Of a stretch of DNA of 48,418 nucleotides, positions 669-42,812 are shown one piece after another (within the stretch, counting starts at the first letter, position 1; every line of letters begins with the position of its first letter). The stretch covers positions 1-48,418 of the forward strand of contig JBMORO010000052.1 of the NCBI GenBank assembly GCA_049322295.1, read 5' to 3'. Made by a program: the position numbers and the translations under genes. The stretch comes from Patescibacteria group bacterium (GTDB lineage Bacteria > Patescibacteriota > Minisyncoccia > RBG-13-40-8-A). The notes beneath the pieces are model-generated. The model was not told the origin of the DNA and ran no database searches. It saw only the letters and a program-made list of their open reading frames with translations.

Positions 669-2465
669 TTATAATGAAGTTTTATCCGCTCCTTTGGGAT
701 ACCAGTCAAGTTCTGATTTATTGATAATAAACACTGCTTCGGGTTTACCGTCTTGGGCTAAAAAGTTCTCAGCAGTCATATTTAACCAATGTAAATTTCC
801 AGTATCTTCGCCAGTTACTTCTAATTCATAAACCTTTGGCGAATCAATATAGCGATAATAATTTGAGGTAATAAATGCGTCCCTAACTTGAGGGGTTACG
901 GTTTTTACTGCTTTCCAACCACCTAAATGACCGTACATATTAAAAATAGCTGGATTAAGGAATAATCTTTTATAGCCATATTGGTTAATAATAAATATAT
1001 CAAAATCGCCTTGAGCCCTAATTAAATTTCCTTCTTTTAAACCATAATCTTCTGGTTTAGCCATCTTGCCTGGCTGGGGTTCGGATGGGGGTGGATTCAC
1101 TGGCTCTTGGAAAACAGTCGTGGCCACTGAAAGAATAAAAGGAGTTAATGATTCATTAGTATTAAAACCACTTTTCTTAAATTGGTTAGAAATTACAATT
1201 GTCACTGATTCAACGTCATTTTTAAAATTTGGGATTTTTAAAACTCCTTTTTGACTCGCCAAACTCAACAAATTAATTACTACTGGCTTTTCTTTATATT
1301 CAATAATATAAATGACATTAAAATTACCCCTATCCACCAAGCCCTCAAATTCTATTTCTAAATCCTTGGCAATGGTTCCAGTATCTTGTTTATTAATAAA
1401 ACGATACCAATAAGGGGCCCAATCCTTAATATTTTGAGCAATACTAATAACACTGGTTGAAACAATGCTGTAAGTGATAGGCGAAACATTAATTGCTCCT
1501 TTAAGATAGGGATTTTTATAACCATAGCGGCCATCGCTTAGAGAAGAATCATTTAGATAATTAGCCACTGCCCAATTGTTAAAAACTTGAGAGAAACTGA
1601 AATTAAAACCTTTATCTTTTAAAGCCTGTTCTATGCTATAAATACCAACTTTATTATTTTGTAGCATATAAGAAAATATATTTTCACCAAATTGCTCAAC
1701 CAAATAATGACCCAAAATATTAACTGAGGGATAATCAAAGCGGTCTCCCTGCCATTCGGTTAAGGAATTAAAGGGATTAGCTAAAAAATCATTCACCCTC
1801 CTCTCTAGGTTTGTGCCTGTATAGACACTGTCGTAACCAGCTGCTGTGGGCGCATATTCGCTTCTTGCTTCGTTTAGCCAAACTTCCTCGACTAACCCCT
1901 GAGTCCTTTCTTTCTGATTCCAGGATATCAGATGTTGAAACTCATGAGATATAAAACTATCAATTAAGGCGCTGCTAATTTGAGTGACATTTACATAGAG
2001 CATTTCTTTTTCATTAGAAGTTGGCTCCAATGATTTAGATATTTCGTCCTTGGAATTAAAATAGCCGCCAGCAGTTGATTTAAGTTGAGTAAGTAAAATT
2101 GTTATTCTTTCATCATCATCAATGCCCGGCTTCCATTCCGAACCAAAAACATAACGGACAGCTGGATAGGTTGTATTATCAAAATTTTTAGCTATATTAC
2201 TAAGAAGGTTGAGATAAGAAACCTGTTCAGAGCTAGAAAGAGCATCCCAATATTCATCTTCAATATAGAAATAAACTCTATCAGAAATTTTTCTTAGGGT
2301 GGCTGAAATTTCTGTTCTGTCGTTAAAGTCATAAGAAGGGTCAATAAAGAAATTTGCCTTTTCACCTAATTCAATGGCTAAAGCTGAGGAATATAAAAGA
2401 ATAAAAATCCCGCCTGAAAATAGCAGGGTCAATAAAATCTTTCTTGATTTCGAAAAAGAAACCAT
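669..2465 (-). CDS. Secreted zinc-metallopeptidase-like protein (gluzincin-type HExxH...WLNE) with a conserved 129-aa C-terminal surface domain
   Basis: The N-terminus MVSFSKSRKILLTLLFSGGIFILLYSSALA looks like a signal or anchor. HEFQHLISWNQKERTQGLVEEVWLNEARSEY has HExxH plus a downstream WLNE, as in M1-type gluzincins. The last 129 aa are 97/129 identical (hand count) to the C-terminus of 41532-42812. Confidence 0.75.
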   Translation of the reverse strand: MVSFSKSRKILLTLLFSGGIFILLYSSALAIELGEKANFFIDPSYDFNDRTEISATLRKISDRVYFYIEDEYWDALSSSEQVSYLNLLSNIAKNFDNTTYPAVRYVFGSEWKPGIDDDERITILLTQLKSTAGGYFNSKDEISKSLEPTSNEKEMLYVNVTQISSALIDSFISHEFQHLISWNQKERTQGLVEEVWLNEARSEYAPTAAGYDSVYTGTNLERRVNDFLANPFNSLTEWQGDRFDYPSVNILGHYLVEQFGENIFSYMLQNNKVGIYSIEQALKDKGFNFSFSQVFNNWAVANYLNDSSLSDGRYGYKNPYLKGAINVSPITYSIVSTSVISIAQNIKDWAPYWYRFINKQDTGTIAKDLEIEFEGLVDRGNFNVIYIIEYKEKPVVINLLSLASQKGVLKIPNFKNDVESVTIVISNQFKKSGFNTNESLTPFILSVATTVFQEPVNPPPSEPQPGKMAKPEDYGLKEGNLIRAQGDFDIFIINQYGYKRLFLNPAIFNMYGHLGGWKAVKTVTPQVRDAFITSNYYRYIDSPKVYELEVTGEDTGNLHWLNMTAENFLAQDGKPEAVFIINKSELDWYPKGADKTSL

Positions 2466-2544
2466 ATTATTTAAATTGTATCATAAAAAAAATATAAAGG
2501 TAATAAAAGGGCTGGGAAAGCATGCCCCGTACTGATTTTACCAT

Positions 2545-2588
2545 TATTAAAATAAAAAGAAGAGAAAAATTAAAAATCATTCTCTTCT
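2545..2588 (-). terminator. Terminator-like hairpin plus U-tract (minus strand) inside the 2466-3072 gap
   Basis: On the minus strand the sequence reads AGAAGAGAA-(13 nt)-UUCUCUUCU followed by UUUUAUUUU. The stem is 2580-2588/2558-2566. It is only 9 bp and A/U-rich, so the call is weak. Confidence 0.35.
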
Positions 2589-2996
2589 CTTACGAGGCGC
2601 AAGGTCGAATAGACCTTTCTTAGAGAGCGCCTCGCCGATAAAATACTCAGTAAAATCAGTTCGGGGTTTAACCCTCCCGAAAATTCTAGGCAGAAAGGAA
2701 CCCAGAAAGTTTAACCCCAATACTAGGTGTTGAGTGGGTACTTGTTCTGGGTTCCTTTCTGCCTAAACGGGATTGCTTCGCTAACAATACTAGGTGTTGA
2801 GTGGGTACTTGTTCCCAGCCCTTTTATATCATGACTTCTTAGTCCCGATATATTTTTAGTATAGGGATTTTAAATCGGGATGTCAATTTATCCCCACACC
2901 AAAATTTGGTGTGGGGATAAAAAGAGAAACCTCGGAACTAGCCAGAGGTTTCTCCCCTAGTCTCAGGGTCTGTCTTTCGACAATACCCACTCAACT
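2550..2996 (-). ncRNA. Candidate structured non-coding RNA or long structured leader (family unknown)
   Basis: Three nested helices are perfect or near-perfect: 2503-2518/2812-2827 (16 bp), 2525-2541/2650-2666 (17 bp, 1 mismatch) and 2687-2707/2745-2765 (21 bp). Local hairpins lie at 2558-2588, 2593-2634, 2843-2880, 2890-2918 and 2924-2954. The candidate is bounded by a TTGACA-N17-TAAACT promoter (3003-3031, minus) and a stem plus U-tract (2545-2588). The region is a 607-nt ORF-free gap in otherwise tightly packed DNA. Strand and ends are inferred. Confidence 0.4.
2718..2814. repeat. Perfect 30-nt direct repeat (2 copies) plus a 12-nt inverted partial copy downstream
   Basis: caatactaggtgttgagtgggtacttgttc occurs at 2718-2747 and again at 2785-2814. 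The reverse complement of the core gttgagtgggta occurs at 2984-2995. Confidence 0.9.
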
Positions 2997-3002
2997 AATC
3001 TC

Positions 3003-3031
3003 AGTTTAGCAAATTAAAAAATGGTTGTCAA
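3003..3031 (-). promoter_or_regulatory. Sigma70-type promoter candidate, TTGACA-N17-TAAACT, firing into the ORF-free gap
   Basis: On the minus strand TTGACA lies at 3031-3026, followed by a 17-nt spacer and TAAACT at 3008-3003. The predicted start near 2996 coincides with the inverted GUUGAGUGGGUA copy. No ORF follows for about 530 nt. Confidence 0.5.
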
Positions 3032-3060
3032 GTCTGCACCTTCGGCCAAAGAAGCAGACT
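3031..3060 (-). terminator. Hairpin immediately downstream of the 3073-5319 gene (possible terminator)
   Basis: agtctg/cagact is the outer stem with an inner cttc/gaag stem. On the minus strand a T-run begins only about 10 nt after the stem, so this is not a canonical terminator. Confidence 0.3.
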
Positions 3061-3072
3061 CAAGGTTTTTAC

Positions 3073-5319
3073 CTATTGGGGCAAAGAATTAATAAATTTT
3101 TCAGCTTCATCTTTAAACGATGGGTCAATCTCGGCTGCTTTTAAAGCCATCTCCCTTGCCTTATCATAATTCCCTACCTTGGCATAAGCCGCGGCTAAAG
3201 AAGCATAAAATTGAGGATTTTGGGGTTGCTCTTCAATAGCTAAAAGATAATATCCTATAATTTTTTGGTAATTGCCAACTTTCTCATAAATATTTACTAA
3301 GCGCATTAAATCAGAAATACTATTTTTATAATCATAGCCTATTTCTATGGCTTTCTCCACATTAGTAACGGCCTCTTCATAATGTCCTAGGTAATAGGCG
3401 CTCACTCCCAGAAACCAATAAGAAATCATTACTTTGGGGTTAAGCTCCAGGGCCTTTTTAAAAGTTTGATATGACTCCTGATATTTTTTCTCAGAAAACT
3501 GAGCCTGGCCTAATTCATACCAGATTCGGGGATTTTTTTTATTAAGCTCTAGGGCCTTCCCAATAAAGGATTCTGCCTGGTCGCCAGCTCCTGCCTCTTT
3601 ATCTATTAATAGAATATACATTCTTCCCACATAAAGATAAGGGATGGTATCTTGGGGGTATTTTTCTATATTTTTCTCCACCTCATTAATCGCATAATAA
3701 AGCAAGGCTGGGTCAAAATCTTTGTTTTTTTGACGCTGAGATTCGGTAACTTGAATAGCAAAAGTGGCTAATTTATGTCTAATTTCATAACTACCCTGGG
3801 GAGTTTTGTAATTAAGGGCTTCTCGATATTTATTAAATGCCTGTTGGGCATTACCATCTCGACCAGCTATAATTGCTCGGGTACAAGCAAAATTAGCTCG
3901 AGCTGGTTTGATATTGGTCTGATAGGCGATAATGACAGCTATAGTTAATAATATAATAGTTAAAAAAATTGAAGGCCTCATTTCCTCTTGCTTATTTTTT
4001 TCCGCGTTTATCTGCGTAGCCATCTGCGTGTTTTCGCTTCTACCCAAATAATTAATGTAACCCAGAACCAAAAAGAACATAAAATAATTAGCAAAAGTAT
4101 CAAAAATAAAAAGATTCTGACCAATATAAGCAATTAACATTGCTGATAACACCCCGAAAGTCGCTTGATCTATTTTTTTTTCTTTAAATTTTTTAATAAG
4201 CAAATAGAAAATGATAATAAAAATAGATAAATAACTTAGAAGCCCTATCATTCCTTCTGTAGATAACATTTCCAAAATAATGTTATGGGCTCTGTCCCAG
4301 ATTGTCTCTGCCCCTAAGCCGGTAAAGTGACGTGGATCAAAATATTTCATATGCAAAAACATAAAATTTTCCGGTCCCCAACCAAATATCGGTTTTTCTT
4401 TCCATCCCAAAATAGCGCTTTTCCAAGACCATAATCTGGTCTGGACGGTTGAAGTATCTTTGGAAATATCAGTAATTCTACTTAACCAACCAATGTTTTT
4501 TATCCACCCTTGATTTCTATTTAGCCAGATTCCTATAGCTAGAATTATAAAAATTAATATAGCGATTGATAGATAAATTTTTGCTTTCCGATTTTTTGAA
4601 GCAAAAACAAAAAATAGAGTCAAAAGAAAAACAGAACCGAAAAGAGAAAGAACTGCCCCTCGAACTGCAGTCATCAATATCGCTGGAATACCCAAAATAA
4701 TTACTGCGACAAAAAATCCCTTTTGCCAGATGGCTGTATCGTTTTTTAACAAAAATAAAAGAGCCAAATAAATAATAAATAAAAGATAACCAGCAAAAAG
4801 AGCGGGATTACCAATAGTGCCAATAACTCTCTCGCCATGCTGCCAACCAACAAAAAAATCTCCCAGACGCAAGCGTTGACCATAAGCAAATAAAATTGAA
4901 AGAAAACCAACAAAAACTGATATTTTCAAAATTTTGTTCCAATCTTCCCTAACTCTAATAATGCTGGTCAAGATAAGAAAATAAACCCAAAAATGTAAGA
5001 AACTAAAAATACCACCCATTCGCTCTAGCGAACCCCACCAACTGTTATAAAAATTAACCCCGATAAGCCCAGTTAAAAAATAAAGACCAGTAAAAATAGA
5101 AAAGCTGATTAAAATTAAACTCCATTTTGGTCGATAATCCCTATTAATTAAAATTAAAAGAATATAAAAAACCGCCATTAATTCCACTAAAGTTCTAAAA
5201 ACAATCATCTTTCCAAAGTGAAATGGCGATAAATATTGGGAGAAAATAACCAAAGGCAAAAACAGGGAAATAAAAATTCCCCAACGAAGAATTTTTACAT
5301 AGGTATCTGAGGCATTCAT
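3073..5319 (-). CDS. O-antigen ligase/polymerase-like polytopic membrane protein fused to a C-terminal TPR domain
   Basis: The N-terminal part has many TM helices and a GTIGNPALFAGYLLF segment typical of Wzy_C/O-antigen ligase families. The C-terminal ~270 aa carries repeated TPR-like A..Y..AL.L.P motifs, for example FKKALELNPKVMISYWFLGVSAYYLGHYEEA and YASLAAAYAKVGNYDKAREMALKAAEIDP. The track start at 5367 is a TTG. I prefer the ATG at 5319 (MNASDTYVKILRWG) because a consensus promoter lies at 5332-5361. Confidence 0.75.
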   Translation of the reverse strand: MNASDTYVKILRWGIFISLFLPLVIFSQYLSPFHFGKMIVFRTLVELMAVFYILLILINRDYRPKWSLILISFSIFTGLYFLTGLIGVNFYNSWWGSLERMGGIFSFLHFWVYFLILTSIIRVREDWNKILKISVFVGFLSILFAYGQRLRLGDFFVGWQHGERVIGTIGNPALFAGYLLFIIYLALLFLLKNDTAIWQKGFFVAVIILGIPAILMTAVRGAVLSLFGSVFLLTLFFVFASKNRKAKIYLSIAILIFIILAIGIWLNRNQGWIKNIGWLSRITDISKDTSTVQTRLWSWKSAILGWKEKPIFGWGPENFMFLHMKYFDPRHFTGLGAETIWDRAHNIILEMLSTEGMIGLLSYLSIFIIIFYLLIKKFKEKKIDQATFGVLSAMLIAYIGQNLFIFDTFANYFMFFLVLGYINYLGRSENTQMATQINAEKNKQEEMRPSIFLTIILLTIAVIIAYQTNIKPARANFACTRAIIAGRDGNAQQAFNKYREALNYKTPQGSYEIRHKLATFAIQVTESQRQKNKDFDPALLYYAINEVEKNIEKYPQDTIPYLYVGRMYILLIDKEAGAGDQAESFIGKALELNKKNPRIWYELGQAQFSEKKYQESYQTFKKALELNPKVMISYWFLGVSAYYLGHYEEAVTNVEKAIEIGYDYKNSISDLMRLVNIYEKVGNYQKIIGYYLLAIEEQPQNPQFYASLAAAYAKVGNYDKAREMALKAAEIDPSFKDEAEKFINSLPQ
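4000..4041 (-). repeat. 42-nt in-frame element, copy a (encodes RSENTQMATQINAE)
   Basis: On the minus strand it reads agaagcgaaaacacgcagatggctacgcagataaacgcggaa. It is 32/42 identical to the copy at 46943-46984. It lies between the membrane domain and a further TM helix. Confidence 0.7.
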
Positions 5320-41397: not shown

Positions 41398-41443
41398 GGA
41401 TTTATCCTATCATGTTTCGCTAAAAAAATAAACCCCCCACTAG

Positions 41444-41497
41444 AAAAAGCACTAGTCATCTTTGATGACCAAATTAAACTTTAGTTAGTGCTTTTTT
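41444..41497 (-). terminator. Terminator-like structure flanked by an A-run and a T-run, downstream of 41532-42812
   Basis: The outer stem is gcacta (41449-41454)/tagtgc (41486-41491). The inner hairpin is gtcatc-ttt-gatgac (41455-41469). The flanks are aaaaa and tttttt, so a U-tract follows the stem on either strand. Confidence 0.45.
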
Positions 41498-41531
41498 CAG
41501 TACGGGGTAAACTCTTTTTGTTCTTTTGCTC

Positions 41532-42812
41532 TTACAACGAAGTCACATCCGCTCCCTTGGAATACCAATCAAGTTCTTTCTTGTTAATGGTGAAGATAGC
41601 ATTAGCATTTCCTCCCTGACTTAAGTAATTTTCAGCAGTCATATTAATCCAGTGAAGCGTACCAGTATCTTCTCCAGTTACTTTCATCAAATATACTTTA
41701 GGAGAATCAACATAGCGGTAATGATGAGAAGTTACAAAGGCGTCTCGGGTTGTCTTGGTTACTGTTTTGACTGCTTTCCAACCACCCAAATGGCCATACA
41801 TATTAAAAATGGTTGGATTAAGGAATAAGCGTTTGTAGCCAAATTGATTGACGATAAAGACATCCCAATCTCCTTCAGCCCTGATTAAATCTCCTTCTTT
41901 AAGACCATAGTCTTTTGGATCAGCCATTTTCTTGGCTGCTGAATCGCCCAATATCACAAAATAAGTAAAGTGATTGGTAGCGGCTGTGATTTTATTATTG
42001 GCCTTATCAAGTGTGCTAGTTAAAGCCGACCACTTACTTCCATCCCAATAATAAATCTTCAAACTATCTTCATTCAAATCGCTAATCTGGGTATCAGTAT
42101 AAGTAAAGGTCAGGGTTACATCTTTGGAAAAAGTTGCCACCGCCATTCCATTAGCAGTGGCAGTTAGATTATAAGCATAACCACCAGCTATGCTCTTGCC
42201 TGAAGGAAGAGAACGGGTACTAACCACTTCAGCTTTTTCATCAGCGACAATTTTTATTTCGGTTGAAGAGCTAACTGCATTAGCTGGTAAATCAACTATA
42301 ATATTATTCTCTTCATTGGTAGTTAAAGTTGTCTTTCCTCCGCCAGAAGGAGTAGCGGTGACCTGACCAGTAGTAGTTGTTGGCTTAGATGGAGTGGTTG
42401 GTTCTGGAGCGGCTCCGCCTCCGCCACCAGTACTTCCCCAAGAAGGACAGGTTTCTGTAGAGGGTGTTATGGTGATGGTTGTCTGGGTGCCGCTGCCACC
42501 AAGAACTTTTCTAGAATAAGAAGAATTATAATTACAATCAGTTTCAGCTAAACTATTAAACAGATATCTATCAGAAGACCTTATTTCCACGCTTGAATTA
42601 GCTGACAAGGTAAAGGTCATATAACTAGAATAAACACTCATTTCATCAGCCAAGGAACCAGCTATAATTGTAAAACTCATGCCATTATCCAGAACTATGG
42701 TGGTATCAGCATTAAAACTAAGCTCATCAGCTGCAAGGGCAAACCAAGGCAAACCCAACATTCCTGCTGTAAAAATCAAGAGAAACGCTATTGTAAGGAT
42801 TTTTTTGCGCAT
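41532..42812 (-). CDS. Secreted surface protein with a Gly/Thr/Pro-rich linker, an Ig-like middle region and the shared 129-aa C-terminal domain
   Basis: The signal peptide is MRKKILTIAFLLIFTAGMLGLPWFALA. The linker is GSTGGGGGAAPEPTTPSKPTTTTGQVTATPSGGGKTT (about 42318-42437). The C-terminal 129 aa are 97/129 identical to those of 669-2465. Confidence 0.75.
   Translation of the reverse strand: MRKKILTIAFLLIFTAGMLGLPWFALAADELSFNADTTIVLDNGMSFTIIAGSLADEMSVYSSYMTFTLSANSSVEIRSSDRYLFNSLAETDCNYNSSYSRKVLGGSGTQTTITITPSTETCPSWGSTGGGGGAAPEPTTPSKPTTTTGQVTATPSGGGKTTLTTNEENNIIVDLPANAVSSSTEIKIVADEKAEVVSTRSLPSGKSIAGGYAYNLTATANGMAVATFSKDVTLTFTYTDTQISDLNEDSLKIYYWDGSKWSALTSTLDKANNKITAATNHFTYFVILGDSAAKKMADPKDYGLKEGDLIRAEGDWDVFIVNQFGYKRLFLNPTIFNMYGHLGGWKAVKTVTKTTRDAFVTSHHYRYVDSPKVYLMKVTGEDTGTLHWINMTAENYLSQGGNANAIFTINKKELDWYSKGADVTSL

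Follow-up and report, generated by a model that had tools for sequence, protein, structure and literature searches.

A well-supported candidate pair of small RNA and mRNA leader upstream of metalloprotease and secA genes in a Patescibacteria clade

The contig JBMORO010000052.1 of a Patescibacteria group bacterium (GCA_049322295.1), whose entire 48,418 nt are referred to here as the window, carries a 607-nt intergenic gap (2466–3072) that is free of open reading frames (ORFs) except for two frames of 47 and 53 codons, both implausible as genes. The gap is preceded by a gene for a Wzy_C/TPR protein (stop codon at 3075–3073) and followed, on the minus strand, by a gene for a 598-aa HExxH neutral-metalloprotease-like protein (669–2465). 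Next after the protease gene comes secA, which starts at about 647 and runs off the window; SecA Pfam domains are seen in the relatives. The protease product has no match in Pfam; its profile matches the structure of a neutral metalloprotease (PDB 7bb8_A, E 3.9e-13), and the residues H174, E175 and H178 of the HExxH motif are invariant among its homologs, which are labelled Patescibacteria, for example Portnoybacteria and Paceibacterota. Comparison with orthologous regions points to two minus-strand units in the gap, a small-RNA gene of about 80 nt and the 5' leader of the protease–secA transcript, and it is likely that the small RNA is a dedicated riboregulator acting in trans. The small RNA–leader pair appears to be new and is well supported, by the sequence comparisons described below, as one that binds or controls the metalloprotease–secA leader in a clade of Patescibacteria.

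The search set comprised the window and 165 related loci (975 kb), which were analyzed with nhmmer and with covariance models (CMs) of the small RNA (R1) and of the leader hairpin (R2); individual loci are cited by number (e.g. L004). Orthologous upstream regions were obtained from 41 loci, corresponding to 33 unique sequences with the window included. The small RNA gene is predicted to be transcribed from promoter P1 (3003–3031, minus strand), which consists of a –35 element TTGACA (3031–3026), a 17-nt spacer and an extended –10 element TGC-TAAACT (3011–3003); the consensus scan gives 10/12 matches, and the TG before the –10 element is present. The initial annotation of the window had proposed this promoter, as TTGACA-N17-TAAACT, together with transcription from about position 2996, exactly where a 12-mer complementary to a repeat in the gap begins. 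Both proposals agree with the comparative data: TTGACA-N17-TGnTAnnnT is found in all 33 unique orthologous regions, by sequence evidence alone, and a predicted start at about 2996, at the GUUGAGUGGGUA seed, fits the conserved promoter. CM R1 matches the window at 2917–2995 on the minus strand (78.4 bits, E 5.8e-15), which delimits a gene of about 79 nt running from the 5' seed to the end of a U-tract. It begins with seed A' (GUUGAGUGGGUA, 2984–2995), the predicted 5' end of the RNA, followed by hairpin H1 (UGUC-GAAA-GACA, 2971–2982), seed B' (AGACUAGG, 2956–2963) and an intrinsic terminator (2917–2954), in which the stem GAGAAACCUC/GAGGUUUCUC (2954–2945/2933–2924) precedes UUUUUAU. The same order is seen in the family as a whole: TTGACA-N17-TGnTAnnnT, about 7 nt, GUUGAAUGGGUA, a 4–5-bp hairpin capped by GNRA or UUCG, a linker to AUACUUGG, a stem and a U-tract.

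Compensatory changes affect 8 of the 21 base pairs of the small RNA according to RNAalifold. H1 has GNRA or UUCG tetraloops on covarying stems in the relatives (pair 15/27, CG:14 GC:8; pair 16/26, CG:27 UA:5), and the terminator pairs 50/78 (GC:19 AU:12), 55/73 (CG:16 GC:15) and 52/76 (AU:24 GC:7) behave similarly. The terminator stem, 9–13 bp long, GC-containing and covarying, is followed by a U-tract in every lineage. Its top (window 2934–2944), CUGGCUUUAUGUCGA, is almost invariant across the family, and the window loop deviates from it (UGGCUAGUUCC). Terminator loops seldom vary so little, which hints at a protein or tertiary contact.

The second unit is the protease–secA leader, for which a promoter, P2, is predicted at 2858–2886 on the minus strand (TTGACA-N17-TATACT, 11/12 matches in the consensus scan). 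P2 was absent from the initial annotation and is a stronger consensus match than P1. A scan detected the pattern TTGAC[ACT]-17/18-TATA[CA]T in 30 of the 33 unique relatives, and it was recognized by eye in L113 and L121; L105 has TTGCTT. In the family, this module consists of TTGAC[ACT]-17/18-TATACT and a long hairpin, whose stem measures about 21 bp and whose large apical loop of some 38 nt reads UAG-UACCCAUUCAAY-A-CCAAGUAU-UGGGGUU, with the ATG of the protease gene 10–60 nt after the hairpin in the relatives. Compensatory changes occur in 15 of the 25 pairs of the leader stem (RNAalifold), and many pairs are U·G on the sense strand, which would be C·A on the opposite strand. In the window, the orthologous hairpin spans 2503–2827 and has an outer 16-bp stem (2827–2812/2518–2503); its apical loop is interrupted by an insertion, discussed below. 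L088 and L004 each have a single hairpin, to which the outer stem and the sequences flanking it can be aligned (5' side GAUAUAAAAGG..., 3' side ...CCUUUUAU). The first part of the loop is contained in a 30-mer (2785–2814) that holds two adjacent sites, A (2807–2796) and B (CCUAGUAU, 2794–2787). A 4-bp intra-loop helix, ACCY/RGGU, overlaps site A, so that binding of the small RNA would have to displace it; this helix shows a double change in L088 and L089, loci in which the small RNA is also changed.

Both modules occur once per locus, the small RNA in 41 loci (nhmmer and CM R1) and the leader hairpin in 49 (CM R2), always on the strand of the protease gene and directly upstream of it. Sense matches score 71–113 bits versus 20–48 bits for antisense matches. 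The loci with a hairpin alone all end at a contig end, and no module matches were found beside paralogs that share only the C-terminal domain of the protease. At the level of sequence, the comparison thus establishes that there are two modules with predicted promoters and a terminator, that they strictly co-occur and are syntenic, and that covariation exists within and between the two RNAs. The earlier suggestion that the gap harbors a novel RNA is borne out in the form of these two conserved modules, neither of which is in Rfam: Rfam 15 gave no matches at the gathering score in the window or in four relatives' loci, a permissive search of 2300–3300 (E up to 10) returned chance-level matches alone, and ARAGORN found nothing.

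The two modules are complementary to each other. Seed A' (nucleotides 1–12 of the small RNA) is complementary to site A and seed B' (the 8 nt before the terminator) to site B. Seeds and sites were extracted by fixed anchor rules into a gapless alignment, A3 (32 loci, 27 distinct rows), which took the place of a MAFFT alignment of the concatenated modules, in which seed B' was wrongly aligned from one sub-lineage to another. RNAcofold, which cannot represent loop pairing, gave no information on the small RNA and the hairpin together. In A3, 92.6% of the intermolecular cells are paired, compared with 33–38% when the partners are slid by 1–3 columns, and double-sided changes are found in 10 of the 20 intermolecular pairs (36 cells in all). 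None of 500 shuffles reaches any of the covariation measures, and the cognate assignment of small RNA to loop beats 10,000 of 10,000 permutations for both helices. Helix 1 (A/A'), with a duplex energy of –23.5 kcal/mol, is paired in 96% of cells and has double changes in 5 of 12 pairs; helix 2 (B/B') has them in 5 of 8. The matched changes take the form ACUUGG/CCAAGU in most lineages, ACUAGG/CCUAGU in the window and L104, ACUACG/CGUAGU in L090 and L010, ACUAUG/CAUAGU in L101 and ACGACG/CGUUGU in L088. Nucleotide 1 of the small RNA is A only where the loop has U, and G where the loop has C or U. Positions 1–10 of helix A contain 15 G·U and no A·C combinations, which argues for RNA-level pairing of these strands and not for DNA-level repeats. 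The complementarity between the 12-mer and the 30-mer, first noted in the window, is therefore best regarded as a selected RNA–RNA interaction, as indicated by the covariation and permutation tests.

It had also been suggested that the gap could be a switch-like leader controlling the peptidase/secA transcript. The link to that transcript holds, as the hairpin belongs to its predicted leader, and the riboswitch-type features do not: no U-tract follows the leader stem, and neither a Shine–Dalgarno sequence nor a start codon lies inside it. The riboswitch reading was rejected because pairing with the small RNA accounts for those loop nucleotides that are conserved and unpaired. Two further elements of the hairpin were considered and discarded. 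AAGGAG in the 5' arm of the stem does not qualify as a sequestered Shine–Dalgarno sequence, lying about 90 nt before the ATG with no start codon after it and covarying away from GGAG in some lineages, including both copies in the window. A putative inner loop hairpin, CAAUAC/GUAUUG, fails in that its variable Y changes along with nucleotide 1 of the small RNA and not with its hairpin partner.

Two further loci were recorded separately. L013 (64% identity, labelled Portnoybacteria) has neither the small RNA nor the leader hairpin and is the only ortholog with neither; secA does not follow, and the region 1000–1131 holds a 122-nt AT-rich spacer with TGGGATATAAT. In the distant locus L125 (4867–4972 and 5166–5252), which encodes a protease homolog of 42% identity, a small RNA resembling R1 (33 bits) carries the re-coded seeds GCGUGAGUGCA and AUUCUAAAGUC; a hairpin there has a loop that can pair with the two seeds, in the canonical A-then-B order, only when the opposite strand is read. 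The L125 arrangement is convergent and resembles a bidirectional terminator.

We propose the following mechanism. The small RNA (2995–2917) would be made from the near-consensus extended –10 promoter and end at its own intrinsic terminator, and the protease–secA leader would start at P2 (2886–2858). The 5'-terminal 10–12 nt of the small RNA (A') would pair with UACCCAYUCAAY (site A) and an internal stretch of 7–8 nt (B') with the adjacent CCNNGUAU (site B). Sites A and B would lie 1 nt apart in a closed loop, with A' and B' flanking H1, and binding would open the ACCY/RGGU intra-loop helix. The pairing scheme suggests that four helices, namely the leader stem, A/A', H1 and B/B', would then meet at one junction, with the A–B joint as the place where the small RNA has its free 5' end and the exit to its terminator. 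With its 5' end free, the small RNA would escape the topological constraint by which pairing to a closed loop is normally limited. Pairing might change the stability, processing or translation of the protease–secA mRNA, possibly through RNase III cleavage of the complex or through remodelling just before the start codon of the protease gene, which lacks a Shine–Dalgarno sequence.

Several points weigh against this proposal. We infer the transcript ends, the trans action and the regulatory outcome. The leader hairpin is neither a terminator nor does it sequester a start codon or a Shine–Dalgarno sequence. The strict adjacency of small RNA and target is unusual for trans-acting small RNAs and would fit cis read-through as well. 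The register of seed B' comes from a simple anchor rule and is off in L001, L100 and L115. The sequences are phylogenetically related, so the shuffle statistics overstate their independence. Finally, the databases contain no relative with more than 78% protein identity by which the insertion in the window leader could be dated.

This insertion accounts for the most conspicuous features of the gap. A repeat search of 2300–3300 and the consensus scan for promoters recovered all the repeats, helices, the promoter and the 12-mer complement reported in the initial annotation at the same coordinates: inverted repeats of 16 bp (2503–2518/2812–2827, 100%), 17 bp (2525–2541/2650–2666, one mismatch), 21 bp (2687–2707/2745–2765, 100%), 17 bp (2887–2903/2905–2921) and 10 bp (2924–2933/2945–2954), another of 82% identity (2555–2571/2575–2591), and a perfect 30-nt direct repeat (2718–2747 and 2785–2814), both copies of which are complementary to the 12-mer at 2984–2995. 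For the 30-mer and the 21-mer, no matches are expected by chance as judged from shuffles. Among the 33 unique orthologous sequences, the window alone has two loop cores, and the distance from loop core to ATG is 347 nt versus 63–150 nt in the other loci. The window departs from its relatives after the first 30 loop nucleotides (2784 to about 2529) and rejoins them at GGGG-CAUGC-UUUCCCAGCCC, which, together with the loop-core count, places an insertion of about 256–262 nt at 2529–2784 (minus strand), with boundaries left ambiguous when the window leader was globally aligned to L088 and L004. The inserted sequence contains a second complete target hairpin (2687–2765), with a 21-bp perfect stem and a loop holding the second 30-mer (2747–2718), site A (2740–2729) and site B (2727–2720). 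CM R2 recognizes this copy at 2676–2774 on the minus strand with 93.6 bits versus 35.8 bits on the opposite strand, and its 3' loop part and 3' arm are, by eye, most like the hairpin of L101. The leader is thereby given two predicted binding sites for one small RNA. The remainder includes a 142-nt segment bounded by the 17-bp inverted repeat (2525–2666), which encloses a hairpin (2593–2634) and a terminator-like hairpin followed by a U-tract (2555–2591, –14 kcal/mol). Searches of the related loci (975 kb), the remainder of the window and viral contigs gave no homolog of this segment, which may be inserted palindromic or mobile DNA. The hairpin at 2555–2591 could end P2 transcripts before the protease gene.

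As to the origin of the insertion, the helices specific to the window are all perfect Watson–Crick helices, in contrast to the G·U pairs and the bulge seen in the family's conserved stems, and the two copies of the 30-mer do not differ even at positions outside the pairing. This suggests a recent event at the DNA level, for example an insertion, or a duplication with conversion or template switching, and not a conserved RNA fold. For this window-specific part, and for it alone, nested mobile palindromic DNA without an RNA role, akin to miniature inverted-repeat transposable elements (MITEs) or repetitive extragenic palindromic (REP) sequences, is possible, though we rate it below an even chance. 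The perfect helices and the 142-nt segment unique to this genome, bounded as it is by 17-bp inverted repeats, speak for it. However, there is no other copy in the 48-kb window or the 975 kb of related DNA and no evident target-site duplication, a 22-mer core has no match in 185,579 species genomes, and the 21-bp hairpin with its 30-mer is a copy of the family's own target hairpin (93.6 bits with R2) and not foreign. The earlier caveat about inserted palindromic DNA is thus upheld for the nested part and not for MITE-like dispersal, as the copies of the 30-mer and the 21-mer that dispersal would leave elsewhere were looked for and are missing from both the rest of the window and the related loci. 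Within the insertion, a dispersed repeat or MITE is conceivable for the 142-nt segment alone.

Besides P2, a proximal promoter may serve the protease gene. An extended –10-like element, TGATACAAT, was read from the sequence at 2475–2483 (minus strand), 9 nt before the ATG (2465). TGnTAnAAT occurs at the same spot in L004, L088, L089, L090 and L007 and 13 nt before the ATG in L101, which belong with the window to one sub-lineage; it is absent from the other sub-lineage, in which the hairpin ends 10–30 nt before the Shine–Dalgarno-less ATG. We speculate that this element gives rise to a nearly leaderless protease mRNA. A bolder extension of the riboregulator proposal, which we consider rather unlikely, is an obligate RNA device in two pieces, made up of the small RNA and the leader loop, as a pre-organized four-helix junction that would set the levels of protease and SecA; in the window, the duplicated hairpin and the terminator-like hairpin would make the distal leader a two-site decoy, with the gene expressed from the proximal promoter as a nearly leaderless mRNA. 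Such a device might be stabilized by the GNRA loop and the invariant terminator top and read by a nuclease, the ribosome or a ligand.

For the two modules themselves, an alternative to a trans-acting small RNA is one long cis leader, in which P1 transcripts read through and the seeds and the loop form a long-range pseudoknot or switch controlling the protease–secA operon. The modules are indeed always adjacent and on the same strand, 60–150 nt apart in most loci, and even well-supported pairing cannot by itself tell cis from trans. Nevertheless, we regard this alternative as unlikely, given the covarying terminator stem with its U-tract in every lineage, often followed by a second hairpin, and the near-consensus P2 conserved between the modules. 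Moreover, three lineages (L002, L012 with L111, and L121) have ORF cassettes of about 0.7–1.2 kb between the modules, and the complementarity is kept despite them (12/12 + 7/8 in L002, 11/12 + 8/8 in L012 and 12/12 + 7/8 in L121). The cassettes carry their own promoter- and terminator-like sequences, read by eye and visible in L002. Together with the conserved terminator and P2, they favor a separate, trans-acting small RNA.

The cassettes (L002, 3150–3830; L012, 2190–2880; L121, 1830–2840; L111, 1–600) encode small membrane-like proteins, lie between the small-RNA terminator and P2, and are independent insertions; L011 has a different ORF in the same place.

Less probable still is the view that the whole nested domain, either 2503–2827 or about 450 nt, is a novel structured noncoding RNA or a riboswitch-like leader. 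The initial annotation had put forward a closed domain at 2503–2827 and a free-standing RNA of about 450 nt. The fold of the gap is very stable relative to shuffled sequences (z = –13.4 for the minus and –17.6 for the plus strand), its GC content is above that of the flanks, and, as RNA elements of the family, both the outer and the inner hairpin are genuine. However, a strong fold on both strands hints at a contribution of perfect DNA palindromes. None of the 32 other unique orthologous regions is nested, all having one plain hairpin; the segment with the 17-bp helix has no homolog and thus no covariation support; and the perfect Watson–Crick helices without G·U pairs point to a recent origin at the DNA level. 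Nor does a single transcript across the gap fit: the small RNA is predicted to end after about 80 nt at its own covarying terminator (2954–2924 plus U-tract), and the separate conserved promoter at 2886–2858 would start the leader. The compensatory changes suggested as a check are present in the homologous regions, in both modules and in their pairing. An invertible promoter switch, in which A' and A act as 12-bp DNA inverted repeats flanking P2, can be dismissed as extremely improbable, since B'/B is interleaved with A'/A and not nested, the mismatches are exclusively of the G·U type on one strand combination (15 to 0), no neighboring gene encodes a recombinase and the orientation is the same in every locus.

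Several minor features accompany the two modules. Between the small-RNA terminator and P2, the window has an accessory 17-bp hairpin (2887–2921, minus strand), which is likely a second, insulating terminator; hairpins of differing sequence lie directly before the P2 –35 element in several relatives (L104, L120, L113 and L121). More broadly, a GC-rich variable hairpin, often ACCCC...GGGGU, adjoins the P2 –35 element in the window (2887–2921), L104, L120, L113, L115, L121 and L012. A small imperfect hairpin, judged by eye, stands at the 5' end of the leader (2827–2850, minus strand), and L004, L088, L089, L090 and L101 have hairpins at the corresponding position. In the minimum free energy fold of the gap, another hairpin (3028–3063, minus strand) lies just after the stop codon of the Wzy_C/TPR gene and overlaps the –35 element of P1; it is possibly the terminator of that gene and was not seen in the relatives whose sequences were read. 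Between the Wzy_C/TPR gene and the small RNA, L001 (2772–3689) and L004 (2834–3598) carry an NAD-dependent epimerase gene or a UDP-glucose dehydrogenase fragment. This gene is missing at 3073–2466 of the window, which suggests that the spot upstream of the small RNA is a rearrangement hotspot. The C-terminal part of the protease, about 130 residues, is a separate domain: its coding region (669–1067) is 70–83% identical at the nucleotide level to 41532–41930, part of a paralogous 426-aa ORF (41532–42812, minus strand). Many other paralogs of this domain exist in Patescibacteria, none with the RNA modules. An imperfect 33-nt inverted repeat (76%) at 41422–41518, directly downstream of the window paralog, is probably the terminator of that gene.

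Patescibacteria, also known as the candidate phyla radiation (CPR), represent a large share of bacterial diversity, and in the literature searched we found no riboregulator described for them. If the two-piece device is real, it would be the first dedicated riboregulator defined in this group. The candidate small RNA has a one-to-one target, defined by intermolecular covariation and not by prediction alone, which is rarely achievable. The target operon contains secA, the core secretion motor, and a secreted-type metalloprotease, so that the pair would offer a testable handle on the tuning of secretion in minimal epibiotic cells. A 5'-end seed and a second seed around a hairpin, both addressing one closed loop, would be a compact natural solution to the topology of loop pairing, and this bipartite geometry is unusual among base-pairing riboregulators. 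There is also a lesson for genome scans: the showy, perfect nested helices turned out to be the least conserved part of the locus, and the functional signal resides in two modest modules beside and beneath them.

The locus shares some superficial features with arrays of the tandem interspaced guide RNA (TIGR) type and with mini-arrays of clustered regularly interspaced short palindromic repeats (CRISPR), namely CPR hosts, short direct repeats and two guide-like segments around a stem-loop. TIGR arrays comprise 5–15 units of 8–12-nt repeats alternating with 9-nt spacers, located beside a Nop-domain Tas protein, and each RNA has two spacers that address the two DNA strands (PMC12045711). The window, by contrast, has two 30-nt copies that derive from a hairpin duplication, no adjacent tas or cas genes, and seeds that both pair with the same RNA strand. 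An assignment to TIGR was rejected on unit geometry and on the lack of an adjacent Nop-domain protein. Likewise, a CRISPR mini-array of 30-nt repeats, a 37-nt spacer and a 12-nt anti-repeat like that of a trans-activating CRISPR RNA (tracrRNA) was discarded, as the relatives are single-copy, no cas genes are present and the ‘spacer’ is part of a hairpin arm. For either kind of array with at least three units, there are only two copies, and the neighbors are Wzy_C/TPR, the metalloprotease and SecA.

Closer parallels are found among base-pairing regulatory RNAs, as far as the cited accounts describe them. In RNAII of plasmid pMV158, a single-stranded 5' tail is critical for binding to the target mRNA (PMC4485353), and the 5' end of the small RNA described here would similarly take part in target pairing; RNAII, unlike this small RNA, is a cis-antisense RNA that inhibits repB translation. 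OxyS, which is trans-encoded, binds the fhlA mRNA at two short sites, both of which are needed for the complex to be stable (Argaman and Altuvia 2000, cited in PMC2946933), and two short, separate pairing sites on one mRNA are likewise predicted here. OxyS, however, forms loop–loop kisses at distant sites in the leader and the coding region, sequesters the ribosome-binding site, depends on Hfq, has many targets and is unlinked to fhlA, whereas in the present case one loop holds both sites, pairing would cover no ribosome-binding site and there is apparently one adjacent target. A further resemblance is to CopA–CopT of the plasmid R1 repA system, which forms a four-way junction with side-by-side helices (Kolb et al. 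2000, cited in PMC10798244). In both cases, a small RNA binds, or is predicted to bind, a leader hairpin of an mRNA at its apical loop, two intermolecular helices are combined, or by the pairing scheme from covariation would be combined, with two retained stems at a junction, and the output is, or is proposed to be, post-transcriptional. CopA, however, is cis-encoded and fully complementary to its target, whereas the small RNA described here is encoded on the same strand as its target without overlapping it and would pair through two short segments (10–12 and 7–8 nt) that flank its hairpin, one of them being its free 5' end. Furthermore, CopA–CopT controls plasmid copy number, whereas the target proposed here is a chromosomal operon of Patescibacteria.

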